This document shows positions 9,588 through 47,189 of a DNA stretch of 64,000 nt, one piece after another. Within the stretch, counting starts at the first letter, position 1, and every line of letters begins with the position of its first letter. The DNA is from an uncultured Chloroflexia bacterium. GTDB lineage: Bacteria; Chloroflexota; Limnocylindria; Limnocylindrales; CSP1-4. Below the pieces are notes generated by a model that did not search any database, was not told the DNA's origin, and worked only from the letters and a program-made list of their open reading frames with translations. The DNA lies in assembly GCA_963707215.1 (NCBI GenBank), contig CAVPPB010000001.1, positions 256,001-320,000 on the forward strand, given 5' to 3'. A program made the translations under genes and the position numbers.

Positions 9588-11018
9588 GTGACCCAGCTCC
9601 AGGGTCGGCGTCCCGGTGACCGTCGCATCCGCATCGAGCGGGCCCGTCCGCAGGAGCACGTCGTCGCCGCGCCCAGGCGGGTCCGGCCGCCGCCACCTCC
9701 CGGCCTGATCCTCGTCGCCGGGTTCGCGATCGCGGTCGCGATCGGGACGATCCTCCTCTTGCCGCCGTACGCGTCGGCCTCGGGGGCGTGGACCGATCCG
9801 CTCACGGCCCTCTTCACGGCCACCTCCGCCGTCTGCGTGACCGGGCTCGTGGTCGTCGACACGGCCACCCATTGGAGCGCGCTCGGCCAGCTGATCATCC
9901 TGGTCCTCATCCAGGCCGGAGGCTTCGGGATCATGACCAGCTCGACGCTGCTGCTCTTCCTGCTGGTCCGGGGCCGGACCCGGCTCCGTGACCGGGTCCT
10001 GGTCCAGGAGTCGACCGGCACGCCACAGCTCGGCGACGTGGTCGCCGTCATCCGCAAGGTCGCCATCTTCACCCTCATCGCCGAGCTGGCGGGGGCGGCG
10101 ATCCTGGCCGCCTCGTTCTTCGTCGGAGATGACACGAGCGGCCCGCTCGAAGCGACCTGGTGGGGCGTCTTCCATTCGATCTCGGCCTTCAACAACGCCG
10201 GGTTCGACCTCACCGGCGGGTTCCGTAGCCTGGCCCCGTTCGCCGACGACTGGGTCGTCCTGGGAGCCATCGGCTTCCTCATCGTCATCGGGGGCCTGGG
10301 CTTCGCCATCGTCGACGACGTCGTCTCGAAGCGCCGCTGGGACCGCCTCGGTCTCGAGGCGAAGGTCGTCCTCCTCACCAGCGCGCTGCTGCTCGTCGGC
10401 GGGGCGGTCGTGATCGCCGTCCTCGAGTGGGACAACCCGGCGACCCTCGGAGCCCAGGCCGAGCCGCAGCGGCTCCTCAACGCCACCTTCGAATCGATCT
10501 CCCTGCGGACCGCCGGCTTCAGCTCGATGAACGTGACCGCCTACGTGGACGGCACGCTCTTCATCGTGATGGCCCTCATGTTCATCGGCGGCGCGTCCGG
10601 CTCCACGGCCGGGGGCATCAAGGTGAGCACCTTCAGCACCCTGTTCATCGCCATCGCCTCGACCGCCCGTGGCCGAACGTCGGCCGAGGCCTTCGGTCGA
10701 CGCATCAGCCAAACGGTCGTCTACCGCGCGCTCACGGTGGCCCTGCTCGCGGTCGCCTTCGTCTTCGTCGTCGGCCTCGTCCTGACGATCACGAGCGACC
10801 TGCGCTTCGTCGAGGTCCTCTTCGAGGCCGTCTCGGCGTTCGGCACGAACGGGACCACGACCGGCATCACCCGCCAGCTCGGCGAAGGAAGTCAGCTGGT
10901 CGTCATCGTGACCATGTTCATCGGCCGGCTGGGCCCCCTCACCCTGGTCCTGATCCTGGCCAGCCGGGCACGGCCATCCCGCTATCGCCCGGCCGTCGAG
11001 TCGATGCGGATCGGCTGA
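9588..11018 (+). CDS. ktrB: Trk/Ktr potassium uptake membrane subunit
   Basis: FTATSAVCVTGL, SAFNNAGF, RTAGF, GSTAGGIK, MFIGRLGPLT. Confidence 0.93.
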   Translation: MTQLQGRRPGDRRIRIERARPQEHVVAAPRRVRPPPPPGLILVAGFAIAVAIGTILLLPPYASASGAWTDPLTALFTATSAVCVTGLVVVDTATHWSALGQLIILVLIQAGGFGIMTSSTLLLFLLVRGRTRLRDRVLVQESTGTPQLGDVVAVIRKVAIFTLIAELAGAAILAASFFVGDDTSGPLEATWWGVFHSISAFNNAGFDLTGGFRSLAPFADDWVVLGAIGFLIVIGGLGFAIVDDVVSKRRWDRLGLEAKVVLLTSALLLVGGAVVIAVLEWDNPATLGAQAEPQRLLNATFESISLRTAGFSSMNVTAYVDGTLFIVMALMFIGGASGSTAGGIKVSTFSTLFIAIASTARGRTSAEAFGRRISQTVVYRALTVALLAVAFVFVVGLVLTITSDLRFVEVLFEAVSAFGTNGTTTGITRQLGEGSQLVVIVTMFIGRLGPLTLVLILASRARPSRYRPAVESMRIG

Positions 11019-11057
11019 GACCCATGAACGACCCGACCCCCGCACCCAGGAGGCGTC

Positions 11058-11705
11058 ATGAAGCTCCAGGTCATCGTCATCGGACTCGGCCGCTTCGGCT
11101 CCGCGGCCGCCCGCGAGCTCCATCGGCTGGGTCACGAGGTCCTCGCGATCGACCGCGACGAGGCGACCGTCAACGACATCGCCCGCGACGTCACCCACGC
11201 CGTCCAGCTCGATGCCAGCGACGAGGACGCCCTGGCGGCCGTGGGCGCCAAGGACTTCGGAGCGGCGATCGTGGCGATCGCGTCCTCGGCCGAGGCCAGC
11301 ATCTTCGCGACCATGGCCCTCAAGAAGCTGGGGGTCCCGATCGTCGTGGCCAAGGCCGCCACGAACCTCCACGGCTCGATCCTCGAGCGGGTCGGGGCGG
11401 ACAGGGTCGTCTATCCGGAGCAGGAGACGGGGGCACGGGTCGCCCACTCGTTCGCCATCCCCAACATCGTCGACTACCTCGACATCGCGCCCCAGTTCGG
11501 GATCGAGCGGATCCGGCCGCCGAAGAGCTTCATCGGCAGGAGCCTCCGCGAGATCGACCTCCAGGGCCGCCTCAAGCTGACCCCGATCGCTCTCCGCCGT
11601 GGCAACAACGTCATCGTCAACCCGCACCGCGACGAGCGGATCGGCGTAGGCGACGAGCTCGTCCTCATCGGCCGCGACGACCACCTGGAGCAGCTCGTCG
11701 AGTAG
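11058..11705 (+). CDS. ktrA: Trk/Ktr RCK regulatory subunit
   Basis: VIGLGRFG Rossmann motif, GADRVVYPE, TrkA-C domain. Confidence 0.93.
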   Translation: MKLQVIVIGLGRFGSAAARELHRLGHEVLAIDRDEATVNDIARDVTHAVQLDASDEDALAAVGAKDFGAAIVAIASSAEASIFATMALKKLGVPIVVAKAATNLHGSILERVGADRVVYPEQETGARVAHSFAIPNIVDYLDIAPQFGIERIRPPKSFIGRSLREIDLQGRLKLTPIALRRGNNVIVNPHRDERIGVGDELVLIGRDDHLEQLVE

Positions 11706-11777
11706 TGAGCCCGGGCACCGGCGCAACGATCTGCCGGGCAGCAGGCCCCTGGGCTTGGCCGGGCGCGCCCGGGCGGC

Positions 11778-11951
11778 CTAGGGCAGGCGCTCGACGACCA
11801 GCAGGAAGTCCACCCGCGGCGCCCACAGGACGTGGATGGTGACGTTCGGGACGATCGCGACCACCTCGCCCTTGAGGCCATTGAGGAAGCGTTCCAGGTT
11901 CGCCTGGTCCCGGGTCATCCGGATGTCGAAGCGGTGGACGCGGTAGCGCAT
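11778..11951 (-). CDS. Small protein (57 aa), absent from the ORF track
   Basis: GGAGGGAGGTG RBS; MRYRVHRFDIRMTRDQANLERFLNGLKGEVVAIVPNVTIHVLWAPRVDFLLVVERLP*; strong GC3 bias. Confidence 0.75.
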   Translation of the reverse strand: MRYRVHRFDIRMTRDQANLERFLNGLKGEVVAIVPNVTIHVLWAPRVDFLLVVERLP

Positions 11952-12196
11952 CAGGGCACCTCCCTCCGTAGAGGCTAGGCACGGCGCGCGCCGCGGACCA
12001 GAGCCGAAGGGACGAACGACCGCGCTCGCGCGACGGGTCGACGTCGAGGACGATCACCGACCGGTCCGGCGGGATCGGCTTCGCCGGTGTCGCGCTTCGG
12101 GTCTGTCCGGCCGTCGAACTCGGGCCGCCGCCGCCGCACGGATGGGGCATCTGGCGGCGGCGCGTCCGCCGACGCCGCCCGGGTGCCGGGAGGCTG

Positions 12197-13897
<1,701 letters not shown>

Positions 13898-26619: not shown

Positions 26620-27720
26620 ATGTCCGCCGAGTCAACCACCGGGTCCACAGCGACGGCTCCGTCCCTGCCGGCCACCATGTCGGCGCTCGTCGTCATCGAG
26701 CCGGGCCGCGTCGAGATCCGGGAGGTGCCGGTGCCCCAACCCGGCCCGAACGAGGTCCTGGCCCGGGTCCGGGCGGTCTCGATCTGCGGCACCGACGCCC
26801 ACCTCATCCGGGGTGACTATCCCGGCTTCTGGCCGCCGGGCTTCCCGTTCATCCCCGGACACGAGTGGGCCGGCGAGATCGTCGCCCTGGGGCCGGGCGC
26901 GGAGCGGTTCGGCTGGCGGCACGGCGACCGCGTCGCCGGCACCTCACACGACGCCTGCGGCGTCTGCCGCGAGTGCGTGGAGGGACGCTACAACCTCTGC
27001 GAGAACTACGGCCGGGAGGGGCTGCACCGCCAGTACGGCCACAACGTCCAGGGTGCCGACGCCACCTACGTCGTCCATGGCGTGAAGTGCATCTTCCCGC
27101 TGCCCGACGGCCTCTCGTTCGAGGAAGGGGCGCTCATCGACCCGGCCTCGATCGCCCTCCACGTCGCCAACCGCGGTGAGGTCTCGCCGGGCGACACCGT
27201 CGTCATCACCGGCGCCGGGGCCATCGGCCTCCTCGGCGGCGACGCCGCCCGGATCCGCGGCGCCGGTCGGGTGATCATCGTCGGCCGGGGGCAGCGACTC
27301 GCCAAGGCGACCGAGATGGGGTTCGAGACGGTGGACTCGTCAGCCGGCGACCCCGTGGCAGCCGTCCGGGCGATGACCGACGGCCTGGGAGCCGACGTCG
27401 CGCTGGAGTGCGCCGGGGTGCCCGAGACCGTCGAGTGGGCCCTCGAGATGCTCCGCCGGGGCGGCCGCTGCGCCGCCGTCGGCATCCCCACCGTCGGCGT
27501 CGAGATCGGGATGCAGAAGCTGGTCCTCGACGAGCTCGAGCTCGTCGGCTCGCGGGCCTCGGCCGGCGAGATGCGCCGGGTCATGCCCCACGTCGAGCAG
27601 GGTCGGATGCGGGTCCGCGAGCTCATCACCCACCACTTCCCGCTGGCGGACTACGAGCAGGCCCTGGCCACCTTCAACGACCGCTCGAGCGGCGCGATCA
27701 AGATCGTCGTCCAGCCCTGA
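26620..27720 (+). CDS. Zn-dependent MDR alcohol/polyol dehydrogenase, paralog A
   Basis: ICGTD, GHEWAG, CGVCRECVEGRYNLC, GAGAIG. Confidence 0.92.
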   Translation: MSAESTTGSTATAPSLPATMSALVVIEPGRVEIREVPVPQPGPNEVLARVRAVSICGTDAHLIRGDYPGFWPPGFPFIPGHEWAGEIVALGPGAERFGWRHGDRVAGTSHDACGVCRECVEGRYNLCENYGREGLHRQYGHNVQGADATYVVHGVKCIFPLPDGLSFEEGALIDPASIALHVANRGEVSPGDTVVITGAGAIGLLGGDAARIRGAGRVIIVGRGQRLAKATEMGFETVDSSAGDPVAAVRAMTDGLGADVALECAGVPETVEWALEMLRRGGRCAAVGIPTVGVEIGMQKLVLDELELVGSRASAGEMRRVMPHVEQGRMRVRELITHHFPLADYEQALATFNDRSSGAIKIVVQP

Positions 27721-27789: not shown

Positions 27790-28560
27790 TCAGACGACCT
27801 CGGCAACCCCGAGGGAGTAGCCGCCGTCGACGTCGATGACCGCGCCCGTCACCCAGCGACCCCCGGGCCCCGCCAGCCAGGCCACGGCCTCGGCCACGTC
27901 GCGGCCCTCCCCGACGGCCGAGAGGGCCTGCTTCCCGAAGGTCAGGCCGGCCTCGAAGCGTGATCGTTCCGCCTCCTCGCTCAGGCCGCGCAGCTCGGAC
28001 GGGATGATGCCCGGGCGGATGACGTTGACACGGATCCCCTCGCGGCCCAGGTCGAGGGCGAGCGCCCGGGTCATCGCCTCGACCGCGCCCTTGCTGGCGA
28101 CGTAGCCGAAGCGTCCCCGGGGCGGCCGGTCGACGGCCGTCGAGCCGAGGTTGACGACCATGCCCCGACTCCGACGAAGCTCCGCCAGCGCCGCGCGGGT
28201 GCAGAGGAAGACGCTCATCACGTTCGCCCGGAGCATCCCCTCGAGATCGGCCTCCGCGAGGGCGTCGATGGGTCCCTGGACCTCGCTCCCGGCATCGTTG
28301 ACGAGGACGTCAACTCCACCGAACGACTCCACTGCGGCGGCCACCATCGAGCGGGCGTCTGCGTCGCGGGTCACGTCGGCCACGTGGATGGCGACCCTGC
28401 CGGGGGCGTCAGCGAGCTCCTCTGCGAGCCGCTCGAGGCGGTCGGCCCGCCGGGCCGCACCAAGGACGTCGGCGCCCTGCCGGGCAAGGTTTCGGACGAT
28501 ATGGGCACCCAGACCGCTCGAGGCTCCGGTGACGATGATCCGACGGCCCTCGAGCGACAT
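27790..28560 (-). CDS. SDR oxidoreductase, NADP-type
   Basis: TGASSGLG, AARR, YVASK, DVDGG; GGAGG RBS before ATG 28560. Confidence 0.88.
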   Translation of the reverse strand: MSLEGRRIIVTGASSGLGAHIVRNLARQGADVLGAARRADRLERLAEELADAPGRVAIHVADVTRDADARSMVAAAVESFGGVDVLVNDAGSEVQGPIDALAEADLEGMLRANVMSVFLCTRAALAELRRSRGMVVNLGSTAVDRPPRGRFGYVASKGAVEAMTRALALDLGREGIRVNVIRPGIIPSELRGLSEEAERSRFEAGLTFGKQALSAVGEGRDVAEAVAWLAGPGGRWVTGAVIDVDGGYSLGVAEVV

Positions 28561-28609
28561 CTCCCCCTCCACTTCCCTTACGTCCCCGGCCATGGGGCAG
28601 CGTCCTGTC

Positions 28610-30748
28610 TCAGGCTCGTCCCGCGGCGACCTCGTCAGCTCTGCTCCGCCCGGCGAGCAGGATCAGGTCCTCGTGGAGCTCGAACCAGACGCCGTGGTAG
28701 CTGTCGACCCGGGGTGAGGCGACGTAGCGGCCGTCCCCGCCCACGGCCTGGGCCGCGGCGTGGTCGAGGCGCGCCCGATAGGCGGCCAGCCTTGGCAGGC
28801 CGGGGACGAGCGATGCCAGCCAGGCGCCGGCATCAGCGTGGAGGCCGGCCAGCCGGTCCAGCACCCCGGCGTCGTACTCGGCGTCGCTGTGGTCGTTGAT
28901 GGCCTGCTCCCCGTCCACCTCGCGCATCTGCCAGGCGGTCACGGTGTCCTTCATCCGGGCATCGAGGTCGAGGAAGGCGTCGAGCGCGGTCTCGGCCCGC
29001 TCCGGGCCCCAGGCCTCGCGGTCGGCGGCGATCCGCTCGGCGCCGAGGGCCTTGCCGTCGGCGGTCAGCCGGAACATCCCACCGGCCAGCTCGGCCAGGC
29101 CGTCGGCCACGAGTCGGTCCAACAGTGCGGTCAGGTCGTCCGGGGTCGAGACGAGCGCCTGGGCCATCCCCTCGGGTGTCGCGTAGCCCTTGATGAGCAG
29201 CCCCCGGACCACGTCGTCGACGGTCGCCCGGACCGCCTCGAGCGTCGACGTGTCGGCCACGGAGTCCGCTCCGGCACCCGCGCCCGGCGGCTCGAGCTCG
29301 ATGCCGAGCTCGCTGGCCCAGCCTCGCAACACCGCCGCCTCGGGAACGATCGTGACGACTCCCGCGACGGCACCGCGGAAGACCTCGCCCGTGCCGCCGT
29401 CGATGGTGATCGTCTCACCGGCTTCCAGCGTCAGGTCGCCGATCGAGATCCGGCCCTCCCCCACCAGCAGGGCCGCGGCGCCGACGACGGCCGGGATGCC
29501 CCAGCCGCGGGCGACAACGGCGGCGTGGCTCGCCAGCCCGCCGGTCGCCGTCAGGATGCCGGCCGCGCGGGCCATGCCGTGGACGTCGTCGGGCGAGGTC
29601 TCGGAGCGGACCAGGATCACGGCCCGTCCGGCGTCGGCGGCCTCCACCGCGGCATCCGGCGTGGTGGCGATCTCCCCGCTCGCGATCCCGGGTGAGGCGG
29701 GCAGACCGGTCGCGAGGACACGGGCCGTCCCGTCGCGCTCGGCGACCGTCATCGGCGGGTCGACGAGATGGGCCGCGACGCGCTCGACGGCCTCCCGGCG
29801 CGAGAGCGGGAACGTCTCGTCCTCGGCCATGTCGAGGGCGATGCGAAGGGCGGCCTGGGGGCTGCGCTTGCCCACCCGGACCTGGAGCATCCAGAGCCGG
29901 CCCTGCTCGATGGTGAACTCGATGTCGCACAGGTCGGCGTAGTGGCGCTCCAGCCGATCGGCGTACTCGCGAAGCTCACGGGCGACGCCGGGAAGCCGCT
30001 CGTCGAGGACGGCGACCGGCTCGGTCCGATGGGTCCCGGCGACGACGTCCTCGCCCTGGGCGTCGAACATCAGGTCGCCGTAGAGCGTCGGATCACCGGT
30101 GGCCGGGTTCCTCGTGAAGAGGACGCCGGTGGCAGAGCCGGGGCCGCGGTTCCCGAAGACCATCGCCTGGACGGTCACCGCGGTCCCCAGGTCGTCGGGG
30201 ATCCCCTCGCGCTTCCGGTAGGCCCGGGCCCGATCGCTGTTCCAGGACCGGAAGACCGCCTCGACAGCGGCCCGGAGCTGGGTCCAGGGATCCGCCGGGA
30301 CCTCGTCGACGCCGACGATGTCGCGGAACATGCGGTCGAGCCGGGTCCGACAGGCCTCGGCGAACTCGGCCCCAGCGAGATCGGCCAGGCCGGCCTGGGT
30401 CGCATCGTTGAGGCCCAGGTTGAGGATCGTGTCCATCATCCCGGGCATCGACACCGGCGCGCCGGAGCGGACGCTGACGAGCAGCGGATCGGCCGGGTCG
30501 CCGAACCGGTGACCGACCGCGCCCTCGACCCGGATCATGTGCTCGCGCAGCTCGTCTTCCAGCCCCGCCGGCCAGCCCTCGGCGAGGTACTCGCGGCAGG
30601 TCCGGGTCGAGATCGTGAACCCGGGCGGTACCGGGAGCCGAAGCTCGTTGGCCATCACCGCGATGTTCGCCGCCTTGCTGCCGATGAGCGCCTTGAGCTC
30701 CGGCAGCGGCAGGTCGAAGGGGTGGTCGAGGGCGTAGACGTGGGTCAC
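28610..30748 (-). CDS. Truncated PPDK-like protein (ATP-grasp + phospho-His domain) fused to a wHTH/helical domain
   Basis: LLVSVRSGAPVSMPGMMDTILNLG, QAMVFGN, AQGEDVVAG, GGLASHAAVVARGWG; no pyruvate-binding barrel; C-terminal NDHSDAEYD...DSYHGVWFELHEDL. Confidence 0.88.
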   Translation of the reverse strand: MTHVYALDHPFDLPLPELKALIGSKAANIAVMANELRLPVPPGFTISTRTCREYLAEGWPAGLEDELREHMIRVEGAVGHRFGDPADPLLVSVRSGAPVSMPGMMDTILNLGLNDATQAGLADLAGAEFAEACRTRLDRMFRDIVGVDEVPADPWTQLRAAVEAVFRSWNSDRARAYRKREGIPDDLGTAVTVQAMVFGNRGPGSATGVLFTRNPATGDPTLYGDLMFDAQGEDVVAGTHRTEPVAVLDERLPGVARELREYADRLERHYADLCDIEFTIEQGRLWMLQVRVGKRSPQAALRIALDMAEDETFPLSRREAVERVAAHLVDPPMTVAERDGTARVLATGLPASPGIASGEIATTPDAAVEAADAGRAVILVRSETSPDDVHGMARAAGILTATGGLASHAAVVARGWGIPAVVGAAALLVGEGRISIGDLTLEAGETITIDGGTGEVFRGAVAGVVTIVPEAAVLRGWASELGIELEPPGAGAGADSVADTSTLEAVRATVDDVVRGLLIKGYATPEGMAQALVSTPDDLTALLDRLVADGLAELAGGMFRLTADGKALGAERIAADREAWGPERAETALDAFLDLDARMKDTVTAWQMREVDGEQAINDHSDAEYDAGVLDRLAGLHADAGAWLASLVPGLPRLAAYRARLDHAAAQAVGGDGRYVASPRVDSYHGVWFELHEDLILLAGRSRADEVAAGRA

Positions 30749-30805: not shown

Positions 30806-31864
30806 CTAGGGCGCCACGATGATCTTGATGGCCCCACTCGCCGGGTCGTTGAACGTCGCCATCGCCACTTCGTAGTCGGCCAGGTCAAAGCGGTGGGTGA
30901 TGACGTCCCGGACCCGCATCCGGCCCGCGGCCACGTGGGGGATGACCCGGCGCATCTCGCCGGCCGAGGCGCGCGAGCCGACGAGCTCGAGCTCGTCGAG
31001 GACCAGGCGCTGCATCGCGATCTCTACCCCGACCGTGGGGATCCCGACCGCGGCGCAGCGGCCTCCCCGGCGGAGCATCGCCAGCGCCCACTGGACGGTG
31101 GTCGGGACCCCGGCGCACTCCAGGACGACGTCGGCGCCCAGGCCCCCGGTCATCGCCCGGACGGCCGTCACGGGATCACCCGCTCCCGGATCGACCGTCT
31201 CGAAGCCCATCTCGGCGGCCTTGGCCAGGCGGCGCTCGTTGACCTCGACGATGATGACCCGGGTCGCGCCCCGGATGTTCGAGGCGTCACCGGCCAGCAG
31301 CCCGATGGCCCCGCCGCCGGTGATGGCGACGGTGTCGCCGGGCGAGATCGCCCCGCGGTTGGCGACGTGGAGAGCGATCGAGGCGGGATCGATGACCGCG
31401 CCTTCCTCGTAGGTCAGATCGTCGGGCAGGGGGAAGACCGCCTTCACGCCGTGGACGACGTAGGTGGCGTCGGCACCCTGGACGTTGTGGCCGTACTGGC
31501 GGTGGAGCCCGGCGCGCCCATAGTTCTCGCAGAGGTTGTAGCGACCCTCCACGCACTTCTGGCAGACGCCGCAGGCGTCGTGCGAGGTGCCGGCGACGCG
31601 GTCGCCGACCTCGAACCCGAAGCGCTCCGCGCCGGGCCCCAGGGCGACGATGTCGCCGGCCCACTCGTGACCCGGGATGAAGGGGTACGAGGGCGGCCAG
31701 AAGCCCGGGTAGTCACCCCGGATGAGGTGGGCGTCGGTGCCGCAGATCGAGACGGCCTTGACCCGAGCGAGGACCTCGTTCGGGCCGGGCTCGGGGACCG
31801 GGACCTCGCGGATCTCCATCCGCCCCGGCTCGGGCAGGACCAGGGCCTGCATCGTCGAGGGCAC
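30806..31864 (-). CDS. Zn-dependent MDR alcohol/polyol dehydrogenase, paralog B
   Basis: Same motifs as 26620-27720, with long identical peptide stretches. Confidence 0.92.
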   Translation of the reverse strand: MPSTMQALVLPEPGRMEIREVPVPEPGPNEVLARVKAVSICGTDAHLIRGDYPGFWPPSYPFIPGHEWAGDIVALGPGAERFGFEVGDRVAGTSHDACGVCQKCVEGRYNLCENYGRAGLHRQYGHNVQGADATYVVHGVKAVFPLPDDLTYEEGAVIDPASIALHVANRGAISPGDTVAITGGGAIGLLAGDASNIRGATRVIIVEVNERRLAKAAEMGFETVDPGAGDPVTAVRAMTGGLGADVVLECAGVPTTVQWALAMLRRGGRCAAVGIPTVGVEIAMQRLVLDELELVGSRASAGEMRRVIPHVAAGRMRVRDVITHRFDLADYEVAMATFNDPASGAIKIIVAP

Positions 31865-31876
31865 GAGGTACTCCTT

Positions 31877-32767
31877 TCAGATGATGGCCACCGGATCGAC
31901 CATGGAGCCGGTGGCTCCCCGGATCTTCAGGGGGAGGGCGACGAACAGGAACTCGTAGATCCGCTGCCTGGCCAGCTCCTCCAGGTCGAGGCTCTCCATG
32001 AGGTAGATGGCGTTCTCGATGAGCAGCAGCGTGTGGACCGGCTGCGGGTTGCCGGTCGGGCCGGGGTCGGGCGCGGGCTGGACCTCGTAGGTCTCGGTGT
32101 CGGTGCCGGTCGCCACGACCCCCCGCTCCAGCAGCCAACGGGCCGCACTGATGTCCGGGCCGGGCGTCTTGTGGGCGGCCATCCGCTCGGCGTCGGGCCA
32201 GAGGCCCATGTAGCCCGTCCGGATGACCACGACGTCCCACGGCCGGACCTCCACGCCCTGGGCCGCGCAGATCGCCTCCATCTCGGCGGCGTCGATGGGC
32301 GAGCCCTTGGGCAGGCAGTCCACCCCGCGGAAGCCGGGGGCGTCGATGAGCACCCCACGGGTGAAGAATGGCGGCATCGCCGCGGCGTCGAGGAAGCGCG
32401 GGCCGAAGTCCGTGAGGTGTTCGTCGGCGTTGCCGCCGCCGTACCAGTGCATGTCGTCGCCCACGGTCATGTGGGCCAGCGCATCGATGTGGGCGCCCGA
32501 GTGCGACGTGGCCATGACGTACTCGGCCATGTAGCCAAGGCCGGCATCGTTGACCGGGCCCCACGGCTGGGCCCCGGTGACCCTGATGCCCCTGGGCGTC
32601 CGGTAGTTCAGCACCTGGAACGGCGGATGACCCGGGAACAGCGGCATCCCCGGGTAGCGCTGGGCGGCCAGGGAGACCATCCGGCCCTCGCGGACGAGGC
32701 CGGCGGCCCGGACCACCTGCTGGGCGGGCAGGCGGCCGATCGGCCCGATGTCGGTGGGGTCGCTCAT
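31877..32767 (-). CDS. Cyclase family (kynurenine-formamidase-like) metal-dependent hydrolase
   Basis: HSGAHIDALAH, RGVLID, IRTG, PLKIRGATGS; start ATG 32767. Confidence 0.88.
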   Translation of the reverse strand: MSDPTDIGPIGRLPAQQVVRAAGLVREGRMVSLAAQRYPGMPLFPGHPPFQVLNYRTPRGIRVTGAQPWGPVNDAGLGYMAEYVMATSHSGAHIDALAHMTVGDDMHWYGGGNADEHLTDFGPRFLDAAAMPPFFTRGVLIDAPGFRGVDCLPKGSPIDAAEMEAICAAQGVEVRPWDVVVIRTGYMGLWPDAERMAAHKTPGPDISAARWLLERGVVATGTDTETYEVQPAPDPGPTGNPQPVHTLLLIENAIYLMESLDLEELARQRIYEFLFVALPLKIRGATGSMVDPVAII

Positions 32768-35016
32768 GAAGGCACCTCCTGGCGCTCCTGGAGCGCCCGC
32801 CAGACGCGCTCGGGCGTCAACGGCAGGTCGCGGATGACGGCGCCGGACGCCTCGCGCACGGCGGCGGCCACCGCCGGGGCGACGCACAGCAGGGCGCCCT
32901 CGCTCATGCCCTTCGAGCCGTAGGGACCCGGGCCGTCGGCATTCTCGATGGTGGCGCTCACCATCGCCTGCGGCAGGTCCTTGCTCGTGGGGATCTTGTA
33001 GTCGATCGCGCCGAGGTTCCGGATCCGGCCCTCGTCGTCGAAGATGTAGTGCTCCATGAGGGTGTGGCCCAGGCCCATGATCGCGGCTCCCTCGTCCTGC
33101 ATCCGGACCTGGAGCGGGTTGATCGCCTTGCCGACGTCCGACACGGTGACGTAGCGGACCACGGTCACGTCGCCCGTCGCCTCGTCGACCGTGGTCTCGA
33201 CGGCCGTGCAGTTGAGCTCGAAGAAGGCGGCGCTGCCACCGAGCGGATGGCCCGGCTCGTCGGCCTTGCGCATCTCGCCGTTACCGACGACCTCGCCCCC
33301 GAGCTTGCCGAGCCCGGCCTTGAGCACGTCGACGATCGACAGCTCCCGATCGGGCAGCCGGACGGCGCCCCGGTCGACGACGATCGAGGCCTCGTCGACC
33401 CCGTGGACCCGGCTCGCCATCGCGCCGAGCTTGGCCTGGACCTCGCGACAGGCGGCCAGGACCGCGTTGCCCATGAGCACGGTCGACCGACTGGCCGACG
33501 TCTGCTGGTCGTACGGCACGATCGAGGTGTCGCCCATGACGACGGTGACCCAGTCGAGCGGCGCCCCGAGCTCCTGGGCGGCTATCTGGGCGAAGACCGT
33601 CCGTGCCCCCTGGCCCATGTCCGAGGTGCCGGCGAAGACGATGACGCTGCCGTCGGCGAGAAGCCGGACGGTGGCATAGGACAGGCCGGTCGTCGGGCCG
33701 GACTTGATGCCGAGGGCGATGCCACGGCCGTGGCCGGCGGGCAGCGGCGTGCCCCAGCCGATGAGCTCGGCGGCCTTGCGGAGCGTCTGCGGCCAGTCCC
33801 CGTCGGCCGGGGTGTCGCCGGGGATGAAGGCGTCACCACGCGACGCCACGTTCCGCAGCCGCAGCTCGAGAGGGTCGATGCCCAGCGCCAGGGCGCCCTC
33901 CGTGAGGTTCGATTCCACGGCCCAGTTGACCTGGGGGTTGCCGAAGCCGCGAAAGGCGGTCGAGGGGACGGTGTGGGAGAGGATCGCCCTCGCCAGGATC
34001 CGGGCGTTGGGGATCCGGTAGGGGCCGCAGCCCGGGTAGCTGCCCTTGCCGACCACCCGGTCGGCGATGTCGGCGTAGGCCCCGATGAGGTAGTCGGCCG
34101 CGATGTCCTGGAAGACGATCCGGCCGTCCGCTGCGAAGCCGGTCCGGACACGGATCTCGCTGGCCGCCCGTCGGACGGCCTGGAACGTCTCCTCCAGGGA
34201 CAGGACGAGTCGGACCGGCCGCTGGACCCGCAGGGCCATGAAGGCGAGCAGTGGCTCGTACTTCGGGTGCTGCTTGCCGCCGAAACCACCGCCCGGATCG
34301 GGCGCGTGGATCCGGACCTTCGACAGAGGCATGCCCACTAGATCGGCGACGATCCTCTGGAGCCAGTTGGGGTGCTGGATCGAGCTCCAGACCGCGATGC
34401 CGTCTCCGTCCGGCGCGGCGATGACGGCGTGGGGCTCGATGGCGAAGTGGGTCACCATGGGGAAGCCGTAGTCGTGCTCGACCACGAGGTCGGCCGTGGC
34501 CCCGTCCACGTCACCCCAGCCGTAGCGATGCTCGCGGAGGACGTTCGAGGCCGCCAGGGGATCGCCGGCCCTGAGGTCGGGGGCCTGGACGAGCGGGGCC
34601 TCGGGGTCGAGGGCAGCCGCCACCGTGAAGACCGCCGGCAGGGGCTCGTGCTCGACGTGGACGAGCCGAGCGGCCTCCTCGGCCGCATCCTCGGTCTCGG
34701 CGGCGACCGCGGCGACCGGGTCGCCGTGGTACTTCGTCTCGCCGACCGCGATGACCGGGCGGTCCCGGAACTGTGGCCCGAATCGGGGCACCGGCTGGGG
34801 CAGGTCGGCCGCGGTCATGACCAGCCGGACGCCGGGGACCTGCTCGGCCGCCGACGTGTCGATGGCATCGATCCGGGCTCGCGGCACGTCGACAGTGACG
34901 AGCTTGACGTGGAGGACGTCGGGAAGCTGGAGGTCGGCCACGTAGCGCTGCGCGCCGGTCACCCGATCCCGGCCGCCGACCCGGCGTGGAGAGTCACCGA
35001 TGCCGGAGCCGCTCAT
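32764..35016 (-). CDS. Xanthine-dehydrogenase-family molybdopterin-binding large subunit
   Basis: GGGFGGK, AFRGFG, DMGQG, KGMSEG; start ATG 35016 overlaps the upstream stop. Confidence 0.92.
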   Translation of the reverse strand: MSGSGIGDSPRRVGGRDRVTGAQRYVADLQLPDVLHVKLVTVDVPRARIDAIDTSAAEQVPGVRLVMTAADLPQPVPRFGPQFRDRPVIAVGETKYHGDPVAAVAAETEDAAEEAARLVHVEHEPLPAVFTVAAALDPEAPLVQAPDLRAGDPLAASNVLREHRYGWGDVDGATADLVVEHDYGFPMVTHFAIEPHAVIAAPDGDGIAVWSSIQHPNWLQRIVADLVGMPLSKVRIHAPDPGGGFGGKQHPKYEPLLAFMALRVQRPVRLVLSLEETFQAVRRAASEIRVRTGFAADGRIVFQDIAADYLIGAYADIADRVVGKGSYPGCGPYRIPNARILARAILSHTVPSTAFRGFGNPQVNWAVESNLTEGALALGIDPLELRLRNVASRGDAFIPGDTPADGDWPQTLRKAAELIGWGTPLPAGHGRGIALGIKSGPTTGLSYATVRLLADGSVIVFAGTSDMGQGARTVFAQIAAQELGAPLDWVTVVMGDTSIVPYDQQTSASRSTVLMGNAVLAACREVQAKLGAMASRVHGVDEASIVVDRGAVRLPDRELSIVDVLKAGLGKLGGEVVGNGEMRKADEPGHPLGGSAAFFELNCTAVETTVDEATGDVTVVRYVTVSDVGKAINPLQVRMQDEGAAIMGLGHTLMEHYIFDDEGRIRNLGAIDYKIPTSKDLPQAMVSATIENADGPGPYGSKGMSEGALLCVAPAVAAAVREASGAVIRDLPLTPERVWRALQERQEVPS

Positions 35017-35492
35017 CCGCCACCCTCCACTGCAGCCTGGTGGATCGCCTCGGCGATCTGCTCGTAGCAGCCGCAGCGGCAGAGATTGCCGGCCAGGCCC
35101 TCTTCGATGTCGGCGGCGGTCGGCTGCTCCACTCTTCGGAGCAGGTCGTCCGCGGCCATCACCTGGCCGGGGATGCAGAAGCCACACTGGACGCCGCCCC
35201 GGTCGAGGAAGGCGCGCTGGATCGGCGTCAGGTGGCCGCCCCGCGCCAGGCCCTCGATGGTCACGACCTCGCCGCCATCCGCCTCGGCCGCCAGCACGAG
35301 GCACGAGTCGACGATCCGGCCGTCGAGGCGGACCGTACAGGCCCCGCACTCCCCCACCAGGCAGCATTCCTTGGTGCCGGTCAGCTCGAGGTCGTCGCGC
35401 AGGACCTCGAGCAGGGTGTGGTGGGCCGCAACCTCGAACGACCGGAGTCGACCATTGACGGTCACCTCGATCGCGATCCTTCGAGCCGTCAT
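35013..35492 (-). CDS. 2Fe-2S small subunit (CoxS-like)
   Basis: CLVGECGACTV, QCGFCIPG, NLCRCGCY. Confidence 0.93.
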   Translation of the reverse strand: MTARRIAIEVTVNGRLRSFEVAAHHTLLEVLRDDLELTGTKECCLVGECGACTVRLDGRIVDSCLVLAAEADGGEVVTIEGLARGGHLTPIQRAFLDRGGVQCGFCIPGQVMAADDLLRRVEQPTAADIEEGLAGNLCRCGCYEQIAEAIHQAAVEGGG

Positions 35493-36355
35493 GCCGGTAC
35501 CTCCCGCAAGCGCGAGATCGCGGTCGCCAGCGCCCTGGGGCCGAGGACCCGGAGCATCGCCAGGCGGTACTCGGGGCTGGCCCGCATCGACCGAGGCGAC
35601 GGACTGGCGCCGCCGAACATCCGCTCGAGCACCGCGTCCCGGGCCTCCGGGGGCGTCGCGGGATCGGCGAGGACACCGGTCTCGTCGACCACGAGCACCG
35701 GCCGAGGGCCGACGCTTCCGAAGGCGAGACGCGTCACACCGGCCTCGTCCACGGCACAGGCCAGGGTCACCGCGGCGAGATCATGCCCCCGACGTCGGGT
35801 CCGCCGCACGTGGACCGATCCAGACCGCCACCTGGGGATCGGCAGCTCGATCGCCGTCACCAGCTCGCCGCTCGCCAGCGTCGTCACTCGGGAGCGGACG
35901 AAGAACGCATCGACGGGGATCCGCCTCGCCCCCGACGGCCCATGGGCCACGACCACCGCATCGAAGACGAGCAGCGACGGCGCGGTGTCCGCGGCCGGCG
36001 ACGCGTTGCAGATGTTGCCGGCCAGCGTGGCCCGGTTTCGGATCTGGATGGAGCCGACGACCTCGGCCGCCTCGGCGAGCGATCGGAAGTGGCGACCGAC
36101 ACGCTCGTCCGCGGCGATCTCGGTCATCACGGTGCCGGCGCTGATCACCAACCGTCCTTCCAATTCGCGGATGGATGGAGCCAGCTCGGGGATCCGCTTG
36201 ACGTCCACGACGACGGCCGGCTGGACGGTCCCGTCCCGGAGGCCGATCAGGAGGTCGGTCCCGCCGGCCAGGACCCGGGCGTCCGGACCCCGCTCGGCCA
36301 GGATGGCGACGGCCTCGGCGAGCGTAGCCGGTCGTTCGTACTCGAACGCGCGCAT
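35489..36355 (-). CDS. FAD-binding medium subunit (CoxM-like)
   Basis: LAGGTDL, IRNRATLAGN, ASPAAD; start ATG 36355. Confidence 0.92.
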   Translation of the reverse strand: MRAFEYERPATLAEAVAILAERGPDARVLAGGTDLLIGLRDGTVQPAVVVDVKRIPELAPSIRELEGRLVISAGTVMTEIAADERVGRHFRSLAEAAEVVGSIQIRNRATLAGNICNASPAADTAPSLLVFDAVVVAHGPSGARRIPVDAFFVRSRVTTLASGELVTAIELPIPRWRSGSVHVRRTRRRGHDLAAVTLACAVDEAGVTRLAFGSVGPRPVLVVDETGVLADPATPPEARDAVLERMFGGASPSPRSMRASPEYRLAMLRVLGPRALATAISRLREVPA

Positions 36356-36369
36356 CGAGCGCTCTCCTG

Positions 36370-37257
36370 TCAGAGGACGCGATCGACCTCGTCCATCAGC
36401 ACCTGTGGCGTGGCGGCGCGGACGAAGTAGTACGGGCGCTCGGCGAACCGCTCGACATACCCGGCCCGGGCACGTCGGAGCGCCTCCGAGTCGACGATCG
36501 GCATCGGCAATCCGGGCGCCAGCAGCTCGTTGAGCAGGAAGTAGTTCTGGAGCGAGTGGAGGGTCTGGAACTGGCGCTCGAAGGGGATCATCTCGGCCAT
36601 GCTCGGATCGAAGTTGCCGTCGATCGCGGGGACCACGACGACGTCGACGTTGGACGGCTCGTCGTACTGGTCCCACGTCGGCATGTCACCGAAGAACTTC
36701 TGGACACCGCGCTCCGGGGCGGCCTTGTCGGCGCGTTCGGTACCCTCGGTCCGCTTCTTGAGGAAGACCGACTTGGAGCCCATGACGGCGACCCCGGCCT
36801 CATCGATGACCGTCGTCTCGGTCGACACCAGGAGACCGCCGCGGCGGCAGGCCTCGATCTGGCCCATCGACTTGCCGTGGTTCGACTCGCCGCCAAGGAA
36901 GAGGATCGTCCGGTCCCGGTAGCGGACGGCCGAGGCGTGGAACGGGTGGAGACCGACCGCCTCCATCCGGAGGGCCAGCATCGCCACGACCACCTTCTGG
37001 ATGGGGCCGGCCGGCCAGGGCCCGCTGAAGCGCATGGTCCGGCCGTCGTACCCGATGGTCTTCTCGCCGTCCTGGTCCCAGACGATATCCGCCTCGGGGA
37101 GGGTGATCCCGGGCTCGATCCGGACGTCGGCCAGGCGGTAGTTCAGGAAGTTCATGTCCTCGAGGACATGCTCCCGTGGCTCGCCCCCGAACACGTCCAC
37201 GCGCAGGTGAGCGGCCCCGGCCGAGTACTCCTCCGTCAGTCGAAGTGGTCCAGTCAT
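36370..37257 (-). CDS. HPr-kinase/PCK-like P-loop protein of unknown function
   Basis: HASAV...LFLG-GESNHGKS Walker A; LLVSTE in place of the HPrK LVADD. Confidence 0.7.
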   Translation of the reverse strand: MTGPLRLTEEYSAGAAHLRVDVFGGEPREHVLEDMNFLNYRLADVRIEPGITLPEADIVWDQDGEKTIGYDGRTMRFSGPWPAGPIQKVVVAMLALRMEAVGLHPFHASAVRYRDRTILFLGGESNHGKSMGQIEACRRGGLLVSTETTVIDEAGVAVMGSKSVFLKKRTEGTERADKAAPERGVQKFFGDMPTWDQYDEPSNVDVVVVPAIDGNFDPSMAEMIPFERQFQTLHSLQNYFLLNELLAPGLPMPIVDSEALRRARAGYVERFAERPYYFVRAATPQVLMDEVDRVL

Positions 37258-37307: not shown

Positions 37308-38045
37308 TCAGCCGGCGGGTGGCGAGGCCCCCGCGCTCAGGGTGCCGTCGGAGTCGCGGACCGGCCCCGGGCCATCGTGCTGGTCACGAGGGTCAGGCCA
37401 GAGCCGGCCCAGCATCGTCCCGGCCTCCAGGAAGTGCCGTCGCAGCGCGGTGGCCGCCTCCTCCGGGTCACGGCGTCGGAGCGCGTCGAGCACGGGCGGA
37501 TGCAGGGCCGCGATGCGGTTCCGGTCGGCGCCCGGCACGATGAGGGTGATGTAGGTACGGGAGAACGGCTCGAGGGTGCGCCAGACGCGCTCGAGCGTTC
37601 CATTCGTGGCGAGCTCCATGACCCGTCCGTGGAAATCAGCGTCGGCCATGGCCTCGGCGTGGGCATCGCCCTCGCGGGCGGCCTGCTCCATGGCCTCGAT
37701 GTAGCCCTGGAGCTCGTCGAGGTCGGATTCCGTGAGGTGGTCGAGGGCCAGTCGTGCTCCGAGCGCTTCGAGCTCAGCGCGGACGCCGTAGGCCTCGAGG
37801 AGCTCGTCCCGGGTGGGTCGTCGGACCCTGGCGCCCCGGAACGGGGCGATCTCGATCACCCCGAGGGCCTCGAGGTCGCGCAGCGCCTCCCGGACCGGTG
37901 CCTGACTGGTTCCGAAGGCCCGGGCGACCCGGGTCTCGATGATCCGAGACCCGGGCGGGTACTCCCCGGTGACGATCGCCTCGAGGAGGCGATCCTTCAC
38001 CTGGTCGCTGAGGACGCTCCGCGAGATCGCGGCCGGGCGGGTCAT
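37308..38045 (-). CDS. GntR-family regulator with FCD domain, paralog 1
   Basis: SQAPVREALRDLEA HTH; DADFH and LHPPV..A.. FCD His motifs. Confidence 0.92.
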   Translation of the reverse strand: MTRPAAISRSVLSDQVKDRLLEAIVTGEYPPGSRIIETRVARAFGTSQAPVREALRDLEALGVIEIAPFRGARVRRPTRDELLEAYGVRAELEALGARLALDHLTESDLDELQGYIEAMEQAAREGDAHAEAMADADFHGRVMELATNGTLERVWRTLEPFSRTYITLIVPGADRNRIAALHPPVLDALRRRDPEEAATALRRHFLEAGTMLGRLWPDPRDQHDGPGPVRDSDGTLSAGASPPAG

Positions 38046-38055
38046 GGTGGAGGCG

Positions 38056-39822
38056 TCAGTCCTTCATGCCGACGGCAGCCGTCGACTCGAGGATCTCGAC
38101 GACGCCCGTGTTGCCATCGACGCGGAGCTTGTCGCCGGTCTTGATCCGGAAGGTGCCGGCCGAGGTGCCGACGACCGCCGGGATGCCGTACTCGCGAGCC
38201 AGGACGGCCGGGTGGGACACGGTCCCGCCGGCGTCGGTGACGACCGCGATGATCTTGCCGTAGAGCACCTGCCAGGCCGGATTCGTCATCTGGCAGACGA
38301 GGATCTCGCCGACCTTGAGGCTGTCGAACTCGTCCACCGAGCCGACGACGCGGGCAGTGCCCTCGACGACGCCCGGCGAGCCTGCGATGCCCTTGACCTT
38401 GCCGACCTCCTCCTCGGTCGAGCGATAGAACTTGTCCGGGAAGCCCCACAGGTTCAGGTAGGGGAACGCAAGCTGGGTCTTGGTGACGGTTCCGACCCAG
38501 TCCTTGGGCACGACCTTGTTGGCCCCCAACCACTTCTCGCGAGCGGCCTTGACGATGGCGCGGCCGTCCATGCTGCTCGGGTCGCCGATGAACTCGCGGA
38601 GCGAGTTGTAGCGGAAGAAGATGACGTCGTCCGGCCGATCGAGGACGCCCTGCGCCACGAGCTTCTCGCCGATGGCGATGAGCACGAGGCGGACGTGGGC
38701 ATTGGCACCCTGGTCGATGTAGAAGTGATGGTCCGGGGTGAGCGGGGCCATCTTGAGGTTGATCTCGTTGGCGGCGCGCATCTCCTCGAGCGCCTCGCCA
38801 TCGAGCCCTTCGAGGATCTCCCTGGCGGCCGCGTCGATGTCGGCCTTGAGGGCCGCGACCTTGCTCGGGTAGTCGTAGTCGGAGCTGTACTGGTCGCGGA
38901 CGAGCTGGATGACCGGCGTCATGTCCTCGCGGAAGGACGGGAAGACGAACTCGTGGCTCCAGACGGCGTGCCAGCCGAACTCCTTCTGGTACGGGATGAC
39001 CCGCTCGTCGATGAAGCGGCGACCGCGCTCGCTGGACTGGAGGACCGGGATGATGTCCGCAGCGGTCAGGCCCTGGAACGCCTGCGACAGCTCGGCGTCA
39101 CCCTTGACCTCTTCCTTCATGTCCCAGAGGGCACGGATCTTGTCCCAGTTGCGGTCATTGGCCGAGTTCTGGAGCCGGCCGAGCAGGACCTCGTCGATCT
39201 TGCCGTGGGTCTTCTCCATGACCGCGCGGAGGTTGAGCGTCGCGCTGAGCTGCGCGAAGTTCAGCATCCAGTGGATCTTCCAGTGGCGGTCGTGCATGTC
39301 GATGGCGTCCTCGAGGAGGACCGCCAGGTCGGCCAGGGAGAGCTCCTCCTTCCGGTCGAGCATGCCCTCGATGTAGTCGAAGTTCCGCTGCATCTCGGGG
39401 ACGAACCGGGTGCGCCACCAGAACTCGAAGTTGCTGCCGTAGACCGGCAGGACCGCGCCGAGGTAGGCGCCGATCTTCCCGGCGTACTCCTCGTCCTCCG
39501 GCACGATCGGGTTCGTGCGGTAGTGGTACTCCTGCGTCTCGACGACGAGACCCTTCTCCGCCGGGATGGCGGCCGTGTACAGGTAGCCGTTGATGTTCTT
39601 GTAGATCCAGTCCGTCGCGAACGGCGTGCCGAAGCGACGGAACATGTGATCGCACGAGAGCCACCAGCCGCCGATGTCCTCGTACATCGGGCTGAGCGGC
39701 TTGGGGCAGTGCAGGTCGTCGTAGACCCAGAAGAGCGCCTTCTCGGTCTCCGACGTCCAGTCGATCGGGAAGTCGTCGTCCCCGAGGAACTGGCCGAGGA
39801 TCTCCTCACCGACGAGTGGCAC
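38056..39822 (-). CDS. PEP-utilizing enzyme: large helical substrate-binding region + C-terminal phospho-His swivel domain, no ATP-grasp
   Basis: GSPGVVEG, MTNPAW, GGTVSHPAVLAREYGIPAVVG, VDGNTG; GTG 39822 after GAGGAGG. Confidence 0.85.
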   Translation of the reverse strand: MPLVGEEILGQFLGDDDFPIDWTSETEKALFWVYDDLHCPKPLSPMYEDIGGWWLSCDHMFRRFGTPFATDWIYKNINGYLYTAAIPAEKGLVVETQEYHYRTNPIVPEDEEYAGKIGAYLGAVLPVYGSNFEFWWRTRFVPEMQRNFDYIEGMLDRKEELSLADLAVLLEDAIDMHDRHWKIHWMLNFAQLSATLNLRAVMEKTHGKIDEVLLGRLQNSANDRNWDKIRALWDMKEEVKGDAELSQAFQGLTAADIIPVLQSSERGRRFIDERVIPYQKEFGWHAVWSHEFVFPSFREDMTPVIQLVRDQYSSDYDYPSKVAALKADIDAAAREILEGLDGEALEEMRAANEINLKMAPLTPDHHFYIDQGANAHVRLVLIAIGEKLVAQGVLDRPDDVIFFRYNSLREFIGDPSSMDGRAIVKAAREKWLGANKVVPKDWVGTVTKTQLAFPYLNLWGFPDKFYRSTEEEVGKVKGIAGSPGVVEGTARVVGSVDEFDSLKVGEILVCQMTNPAWQVLYGKIIAVVTDAGGTVSHPAVLAREYGIPAVVGTSAGTFRIKTGDKLRVDGNTGVVEILESTAAVGMKD

Positions 39823-40064: not shown

Positions 40065-40076
40065 TCGATAATCGAT
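40065..40076. promoter_or_regulatory. Operator copy 2
   Basis: TCGATAATCGAT in the divergent intergenic region. Confidence 0.8.
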
Positions 40077-40274
40077 TGTCCGAGGTCGCCACGCGGCCGT
40101 GTCGGGTCGACCGGTCCCTTGCCAAGGTGCCCTTCGTCACTTCGGCGGCGGAGGTGCCATGCCGCGTGATCCGCGGGGGTCGCGGGCCAGGCGAGCCGCC
40201 TGCCGGTCGGACGGGCGACGGCGCGACGGATGTCACCCAACTCGCTCACCTCCAGACCGCTTGCCTCCGAGTCG

Positions 40275-40286
40275 TCGATAATCGAT
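40275..40286. promoter_or_regulatory. Operator copy 3
   Basis: TCGATAATCGAT about 40 nt upstream of the transaldolase start. Confidence 0.8.
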
Positions 40287-46469: not shown

Positions 46470-47189
46470 TCAGTCCTCCGTCGTGGACCCGGCTCCGGCT
46501 GCCCGGGTCCCGGCCATCGCCGGACCCTCGGTCTCTCGGGCCCATCCGCGGTCGAGCTTCGCGGCCGCATCGACGAAGTGGCGCCGGAGCACCCGGTCGA
46601 GGAGCTCGGGGTCGCGGCGACGGATCGCATCGAGGATCGGCTCATGGAGATCGGCGATCTCGACGGGATCGACGCCAGGCACGAGCAGCGTGATGTACGT
46701 CCGAGAGAACGGTTCGAGGGCCTGCCAGACACGGACCAGGGTTGCATTCCCGGACATCGCCAGGATGGCGCCGTGGAAGGCCGCGTCGTTGAGCGCGAGC
46801 TCGTGACGATCCTTGGCCCGGGCCGCCCGATGCATCGCCTCGAGACGCCCGGCCAACGCGCTGACGTCGTCCTCATCGATCCGCTCGACCGCGAGCTTGG
46901 CGCCGTACGATTCCAGTTCGGCCCGGACCGTGAAGGCCTCCAGCAGCTCATCCGTCGTGGGTCGGCGGACCCGGGCGCCACGGAACGGCTCGATCTCGAC
47001 GACCCCGGTGGCTTCGAGCCCGCGGAGCGCCTCCCGGACCGGTGCCTGGCTGACCCCGAGCTCCCGGGCCACGCGCGTTTCGATGATCCTCGAATCGGGC
47101 GGGTAACGGCCGGTGAGGATGTCCTGGAGCAGGCGGTCCTTGACCTGGTCTGCGAGGACGCTGCGGGCGATCATGCCGTCTCCGGCCAT
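46470..47189 (-). CDS. GntR-family regulator with FCD domain, paralog 2
   Basis: RSVLADQVKDRLL, SQAPVREALR, LEPFSRTYITL shared with paralog 1. Confidence 0.92.
   Translation of the reverse strand: MAGDGMIARSVLADQVKDRLLQDILTGRYPPDSRIIETRVARELGVSQAPVREALRGLEATGVVEIEPFRGARVRRPTTDELLEAFTVRAELESYGAKLAVERIDEDDVSALAGRLEAMHRAARAKDRHELALNDAAFHGAILAMSGNATLVRVWQALEPFSRTYITLLVPGVDPVEIADLHEPILDAIRRRDPELLDRVLRRHFVDAAAKLDRGWARETEGPAMAGTRAAGAGSTTED

Follow-up and report, generated by a model that had tools for sequence, protein, structure and literature searches.

A 588-residue protein (P0001) encoded at 38056..39822 on the (-) strand of the window, the whole 64,000-nucleotide stretch of DNA that was analysed, is probably the substrate-plus-swivel subunit of a multi-component small-molecule dikinase, in which a VadK-like truncated PPDK encoded in the same gene run takes the place of the HpeI/PpsB/CreI ATP-grasp subunit. 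We refer to the 588-residue protein as the acceptor. By its architecture the acceptor is of a known kind, and the donor arrangement appears to be undescribed.

The acceptor consists of an RPH-like substrate region (about residues 1-470) and a swivel domain with a histidine, H537. Its gene starts with a GTG codon, preceded by the ribosome site AGAGGAG. The earlier note had described an ATP-grasp-less PEP-utilizing protein with a helical domain of about 480 residues plus a swivel His, and this description holds: the N-terminal region measures about 470 residues, and PEP-utilizers (residues 504-573) is the sole Pfam domain. The swivel motif reads TDAGGTVSHPAVLARE, in which the His is H537, and the segment TDAGGTVSH agrees with the T/SxxGGxxxH signature of two-component dikinase acceptors. 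H537 is invariant in all 56 aligned rows, and the HPA motif is present in 76 of 79 open reading frames at the related loci. The N-terminal part is assigned as an RPH-like substrate region because the 56-row family profile aligns residues 209-575 to the rifampin phosphotransferase structures 5hv1, 5hv2 and 5fbs (E about 5e-45). The NCBIfam models RedH, PigC and PRK06241 align from residue 139-198 on, all far under their cut-offs, and the rifampin phosphotransferase model NF041857 gives 106.6 bits against a cut-off of 999. The acceptor is therefore homologous to RPH and PigC/RedH in its substrate region and swivel domain but differs from these enzymes, which carry the ATP-grasp domain in the same chain. 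No ATP-grasp domain is found in the acceptor chain, and its full-length close relatives start aligning at residue 1-10.

The acceptor family gave 4321 matches among 7999 scored candidates, and the N-terminal region is matched by 981 cluster representatives. The best 120 relatives are at least 81% identical, and those with names are from Chloroflexota; relatives at 31-61% identity include P0125, P0138, P0144, P0145, P0153 and P0202. One protein of 1123 residues, P0193, was considered as an ATP-grasp fusion and rejected: it contains the substrate-plus-swivel unit twice in tandem, each time with a PEP-utilizer domain, and has no ATP-grasp. No donor-acceptor fusion was found among the longer proteins, which is a weak test; the one match, P0274, has 14% coverage and an FAD-binding domain.

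Two-component dikinases convert ATP to AMP and phosphorylate a phenolic hydroxyl; HpeH, CreH and PpsA represent the substrate and swivel halves (a pairwise identity of about 45% to them would be expected of a family member), and their partners HpeI, CreI and PpsB are standalone ATP-grasp proteins that resemble PEP synthase more than PPDK (PMC12167813). By architecture, the acceptor resembles HpeHI, AcvAB, CreHI and PpsAB in its RPH-like region, its T/SxxGGxxxH swivel without ATP-grasp, its location in a catabolic cluster and its similar size (HpeH is 71 kDa). The difference lies in the partner: the window group has no HpeI-type subunit in 80 related loci, and has instead a VadK-like protein that carries a His of its own as well as an Rv1126c-like domain.

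A leftward run of genes opens with the acceptor gene and extends to the truncated PPDK and a final short-chain dehydrogenase (27790..28593). No gap in it exceeds 57 nt, and a search for terminator-like sites inside the run found none. This agrees with the earlier description of the acceptor as heading a leftward operon that contains the truncated PPDK. All genes of the run are on the (-) strand, and most were identified with Pfam. After the acceptor they encode a GntR/FCD regulator (37308..38045), an orphan P-loop protein (36370..37257), three molybdenum hydroxylase subunits, namely a CoxM-like FAD subunit (35489..36355, start set by eye at the ATG of MRAFEY), a CoxS-like 2Fe-2S subunit (35013..35492) and a CoxL-like molybdopterin subunit with a KGMSE motif (32764..35016, Pfam and NCBIfam), a cyclase-family hydrolase (31877..32767), a Zn-dependent alcohol dehydrogenase (30806..31864), the truncated PPDK (28610..30748) and the short-chain dehydrogenase. 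By eye, the cluster contains two closely similar Zn-dependent alcohol dehydrogenase genes, at 26620-27720 (+) and 30806-31864 (-), and two similar GntR/FCD paralogues, at 37308-38045 and 46470-47189.

Upstream of the acceptor gene lies a conserved candidate GntR operator, AATCGATTATCGA (40065..40077, (-) strand). Further copies in the window are found at 40275, 24693, 44118 and 48760, and the search gave 7 matches against 0.44 expected. The same sequence is found in 73 of 80 GTDB loci and in L082. It is common to the run and to genes for a transaldolase, a transketolase (named by eye), a CoA-acylating aldehyde dehydrogenase and an SDR, and may mark a candidate regulon of about 27 kb or more. 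A UPF0261 (MarK/Tm-1-like) kinase gene belongs to the same regulon at L072:7840-9090 and 34 other loci; another is found at L082:7490-9593, and some loci have a PEP_hydrolase-family gene beside UPF0261. The aromatic kinase MarK is a UPF0261 protein (PMC12624787). This kinase was considered as the donor and rejected, as it is present in only 35 of 80 loci and absent from the window.

The truncated PPDK (P0002, 712 residues, (-) strand) contains a PPDK_N ATP-grasp domain, a swivel domain with H408 and a fused Rv1126c-like domain. It passes the NCBIfam model PRK05878 (504.8 bits, cut-off 456), which we take to represent the family containing Mycobacterium tuberculosis Rv1127c, and scores below the cut-off of the canonical PPDK model TIGR01828 (518.7 against 843.45). 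Its PDB matches to PPDK stop near residue 462, and there is no C-terminal pyruvate/PEP barrel. A PPDK-type ATP-grasp and catalytic His without the pyruvate domain are the features of the VadK family, and H408 is invariant in 57 of 57 aligned rows. M. tuberculosis VadK (Rv1127c) likewise has no pyruvate domain; its His422 autophosphorylates with ATP/Mg and is required for growth on propionate, and the protein was co-expressed with its operon partner Rv1126c, which 2 M NaCl washes off (PMC13400623). The window protein shares this architecture and the PRK05878 assignment, but differs in two respects. VadK-like and Rv1126c-like parts are fused in one chain in the window and encoded by separate genes in M. 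tuberculosis, and the window gene shares its run with genes for a swivel acceptor and for a molybdenum hydroxylase. M. tuberculosis VadK is read as a methylcitrate-cycle regulator in that report, whose accessible text describes no phosphotransfer to an acceptor (PMC13400623). In a Paraburkholderia plasmid, the VadK-like gene at L101:15306-17849 encodes about 330 residues after the His domain which, by eye, look like a decayed pyruvate barrel, and is possibly an intermediate between PPDK and VadK.

The extra C-terminal domain of the window protein, about 210 residues and absent from the earlier note's description, occupies the place of the pyruvate barrel in PPDK. Its predicted model (pLDDT 96.9) is a winged helix plus a helical bundle, with the histidines H620, H685 and H692. 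Foldseek returned no match at E 0.001 or better. In a wide fold search, the best match (Z 12.6) was a generic helical bundle, followed by MarR-type winged helices at about 12; no HPr-like or carrier family was listed, a result that excludes nothing. The domain matches, at 140-158 bits, a gene of roughly 200 residues that neighbours VadK-like genes on plasmids of M. avium and M. branderi, and we note that the label "Rv1126c-like" refers to gene order and size on these mycobacterial plasmids, not to alignment with M. tuberculosis Rv1126c itself. The motif H-x-x-W-x-[EQ]-x-H (H685 and H692 in the window) is present in every plasmid copy inspected, and the N-x-H-x-D loop (H620) is missing from a fused acceptor of Rhodococcus opacus B4. 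Its fusion partner is the donor in the window, the acceptor in R. opacus B4 (ROP_RS39245) and an AMP-binding ligase in L087.

A scan of GTDB yielded at least 579 acceptor relatives, of which the best 80 (L001-L080, 68-91% identity) were kept; downstream counts are confined to the 59 loci whose downstream flank reaches 8.5 kb or more, as 21 of the 80 are too short. In this co-occurrence analysis, which the earlier note had suggested, the VadK-like gene is found in 59 of 59 loci. Its C-terminal domain is detected in 55, the four misses lying at a locus edge. CoxL is present in 59 loci, the P-loop gene in 57, and the cyclase and alcohol dehydrogenase genes in 49 each; ten presence/order arrangements occur, and the VadK-like gene is upstream on the opposite strand in L071, L076, L078 and L080. 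The 80 loci are not independent, because they are 68-91% identical and nearly all from Chloroflexota, and presence alone cannot single out VadK, because CoxLMS is equally constant (59/59). Three PEP-synthase-type ATP-grasp probes, which detect each other at 154-192 bits, gave 82 matches in L001-L080, none of them outside the VadK-like gene. Within the window they match the truncated PPDK only, in line with the earlier statement that no standalone ATP-grasp gene is present here. Thus, no HpeI-type ATP-grasp subunit was detected with these probes in the window or in the 80 loci.

The P-loop protein had been offered as an alternative phosphorylator, and that it phosphorylates the acceptor His or the substrate now looks extremely improbable. 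Its gene lies two genes downstream of the acceptor and is present in 57 of 59 loci, and the Walker-A-like GGESNHGKS is invariant in the family (66-86% identity across 44 rows). However, the alternative is weakened because the gene is missing from two of 59 loci, L048 and L076, both with acceptor, CoxLMS and VadK, and because the Thermomicrobium roseum locus has no annotated counterpart. The protein has no Pfam match, its resemblance to PEPCK/HPr kinase is weak (E 0.027), and a model built without an alignment has a pLDDT of 32. HPr kinases act on Ser, not His.

More distant relatives probably use a different donor. The acceptor on a T. roseum plasmid is 45% identical to that of the window and branches next to the window group (join support 93/58), and its locus shares with that group the operator, a transporter (binding protein), UPF0261, GntR and CoxLMS. 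This locus carries a standalone ATP-grasp protein (WP_012642554, 323 residues). No VadK or Rv1126c-like gene is found within 15 kb of the acceptor on the plasmid, which is not among the 22 plasmid records with an Rv1126c-like domain. A Bacillus relative (20% identity) also has a dedicated standalone ATP-grasp gene and no VadK nearby. The earlier note had taken a dedicated ATP-grasp partner in homologous loci, together with a lack of interaction with the PPDK-like protein, as evidence against a trans-acting truncated PPDK; such partners do exist, and because VadK is absent nearby in both cases, the standalone ATP-grasp reads, from gene content, as a replacement of the donor and not as a refutation. 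Among orthologous loci, this donor swap is represented by one, that of T. roseum. The same relatives could be taken to suggest that an HpeI-type ATP-grasp encoded elsewhere in the genome loads H537 and that the VadK-like protein is a separate pathway regulator, as proposed for M. tuberculosis VadK, for which interaction with methylcitrate enzymes was reported (PMC13400623); the ATP-grasp search in the present genome covered the window. We consider this highly unlikely, as in T. roseum and Bacillus no more than 3 kb separates the ATP-grasp gene from the acceptor, yet none is found in the 80 loci, and no locus examined has VadK, an HpeI-type gene and an ATP-grasp-less acceptor together.

Among 72,556 plasmid records, 22 contain the Rv1126c-like domain, at 27 places in total. 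Eighteen places were examined with 12-15 kb flanks, 11 taken from one search and 7 from a second. As raw tallies, a VadK-type gene is present at 16 of them, an ATP-grasp-less swivel protein at 13, and all three components at 12 (L083, L085, L086, L087, L089, L092, L093, L095, L097, L098, L099 and L101, with L085 and L092 being one cluster type). No standalone PEP-synthase-type ATP-grasp was found at the 13 sites with an ATP-grasp-less swivel protein. The plasmid acceptors form two families with different substrate domains, and the swivel domain alone is common to both. All nine records of the second family, three of which look identical, also carry the Rv1126c-like domain (among the 22). On the Rhodococcus plasmids L085 (5830-23113) and L092, three second-family swivel proteins are encoded with VadK, an Rv1126c-like gene, a biotin carboxylase and a phosphatase, which is the Hpe pathway gene set with VadK in the HpeI place. 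The Rv1126c-like gene and an acceptor are present without VadK at L096. This is a Methylibium petroleiphilum PM1 plasmid, where a split acceptor and the Rv1126c-like gene (9672-12561) adjoin a gene cluster for a B12-dependent mutase; VadK is absent from the 12 kb around them, and transposases lie upstream. At L100 (13245-18337, Nonomuraea), the Rv1126c-like gene lies between an open reading frame with a PEP-synthase-type ATP-grasp and His and a complete, three-domain RPH-like gene; this site is either a counter-example or a convergent donor.

Five of the 18 sites have no ATP-grasp-less acceptor in the flanks, namely L084, L090, L091 and L094 (the last three of one cluster type), and L100. The VadK and Rv1126c-like pairs at the first four of these sites are what would be expected if the VadK-like fusion acted on small molecules as a dikinase in its own right. 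The Rv1126c-like bundle would then be the substrate site, and the 588-residue protein an ATP-independent transphosphorylase, mutase or phosphate recycler working on phosphorylated intermediates. The C-terminal domain does occupy the position of the PPDK substrate barrel and has conserved polar residues, and HpeH alone moves phosphate from 4-phosphoacetophenone to acetovanillone (PMC12167813). Nevertheless, this reading seems quite unlikely to us. The conserved motif of the domain is found in very different pathways, beside two acceptor families and, in R. opacus B4, in one chain with an acceptor. The partner of the T. roseum orthologue is a plain ATP-grasp subunit, by which the acceptor His would be loaded directly. 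For the VadK-like protein as donor to the acceptor, the earlier proposal of phosphorylation in trans by the truncated PPDK has good support from genomic context (the 59 of 59 loci, the plasmid triads, the fusions and the Thermomicrobium replacement), and the phosphoryl transfer itself is a reading of these sequences.

Two routes to H537 may be considered for such a donor. In the first, ATP would phosphorylate H408, as shown for His422 of M. tuberculosis VadK; the Rv1126c-like domain would pass the phosphate to H537, as an adaptor or a phospho-His carrier; and the swivel domain would then phosphorylate a hydroxyl of a substrate in the RPH-like region, as shown for HpeH. We give this route a little less than an even chance. 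In the second, which is doubtful, the VadK ATP-grasp would load H537 directly. The relay is favoured because H408 is kept in all aligned rows and because the acceptors have only the swivel domain in common. We know of no precedent for phosphate transfer between two swivel domains. In the PTS, the swivel-domain His of Enzyme I exchanges phosphate with a His on a second protein, HPr; if the Rv1126c-like domain acts as a carrier, this exchange is its chemical precedent. The proposed system differs from the PTS in being driven by ATP and not by PEP, and the Rv1126c-like domain has no HPr-like match. When the acceptor was modelled together with residues 338-712 of the VadK-like protein (the ATP-grasp being outside the model), both runs scored 0.00 against a mark of 0.32, which gives no answer either way.

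By analogy, the substrate is probably a hydroxylated (hetero)aromatic compound that is phosphorylated so that CoxLMS can hydroxylate it. This reading follows the precedent of HpdA, the 3-hydroxypyridine dehydrogenase of Ensifer adhaerens HP1, which needs a PEP-utilizing and a PPDK-annotated protein (orf9/orf10) for activity; substrate phosphorylation was proposed there, and no intermediate was detected (bioRxiv 10.1101/2020.01.08.898148). The window likewise combines a molybdenum hydroxylase with a PEP-utilizing protein and a truncated PPDK, although orf9 of E. adhaerens may be of HpeI type or of VadK type. Two further points bear on the substrate: the MarK-family gene at 35 of 80 loci, and the transaldolase, transketolase, aldehyde dehydrogenase and SDR genes that share the operator. 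A hydroxylated (hetero)aromatic compound, from which a sugar or polyol may arise, fits the cluster. The 25-phosphosteroid lyase was also considered as a PEP-utilizer and dropped, as the enzyme is called putative in PMC11061730 and the accessible text of PMC7411048 lacks the term.

Beyond the window, we tentatively propose that VadK and Rv1126c together form a phosphoryl-donor module of general use, driven by ATP and found in Chloroflexota, Actinomycetota and Proteobacteria. It would relay phosphate from the VadK swivel His, by way of the Rv1126c-like domain or past it, to ATP-grasp-less swivel proteins with at least two kinds of substrate domain. The M. tuberculosis acceptor would be Rv2047c, in the unassigned phosphorylation step of pks12 mycoketide biosynthesis. 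The only domains described for Rv2047c are an epimerase domain and a PEP-utilizing domain, and it has been suggested to release and phosphorylate mycoketide (PMC2443190); the phosphorylation step is given to it only tentatively (PMC2443190, PMC7058343). PMC6851703 was rejected as a source on Rv2047c, since in its accessible text the name is a label for succinate dehydrogenase only. In an iron TnSeq study with six conditions, Rv1126c and Rv1127c are both NE/ES/GD/NE/NE/ES, Rv2047c is NE/ES/ES/NE/NE/GD, pks12 is NE/GD/GD/NE/NE/GD, and prpC and prpD are NE in all conditions (PMC7058343). That study also lists about 4,000 genes for hemin versus high mycobactin, with Rv2047c in row 1, ppdK in row 12, pks12 in row 17 and Rv1126c in row 19 (PMC7058343). 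The similar fitness profiles of VadK, Rv1126c, Rv2047c and pks12, from which prpCD differ, are a functional hint; a common envelope defect could also explain them, because 9 of 45 genes in Table 1 of that study have the pattern. The link between VadK and Rv2047c is weakened because a VadK pull-down under a strict filter gave five proteins (MCS, MCD, Mfd, Rv1179c and PpsE) without Rv2047c, and because the vadK mutant can be rescued on glycerol and pyruvate by adding vitamin B12; the authors favour methylcitrate-cycle regulation, and "Rv2047c" does not occur in the main text of their paper (PMC13400623). In the literature searched (titles and abstracts, with few subscription journals), we found nothing that connects VadK-type proteins to swivel proteins lacking an ATP-grasp, or to Rv2047c.

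If the proposed arrangement is correct, many genes annotated as "PEP-utilizing enzyme" and "truncated PPDK" would gain a joint role as a three-part kinase in catabolic clusters, possibly with a His-to-His relay outside the PTS, and the Chloroflexota, Thermomicrobium and Rhodococcus proteins, which come from harmless organisms, make this relay testable. It would also provide a concrete acceptor candidate for M. tuberculosis VadK, whose kinase activity is reported to be essential on propionate (PMC13400623), and would make VadK a candidate donor for mycoketide phosphorylation.
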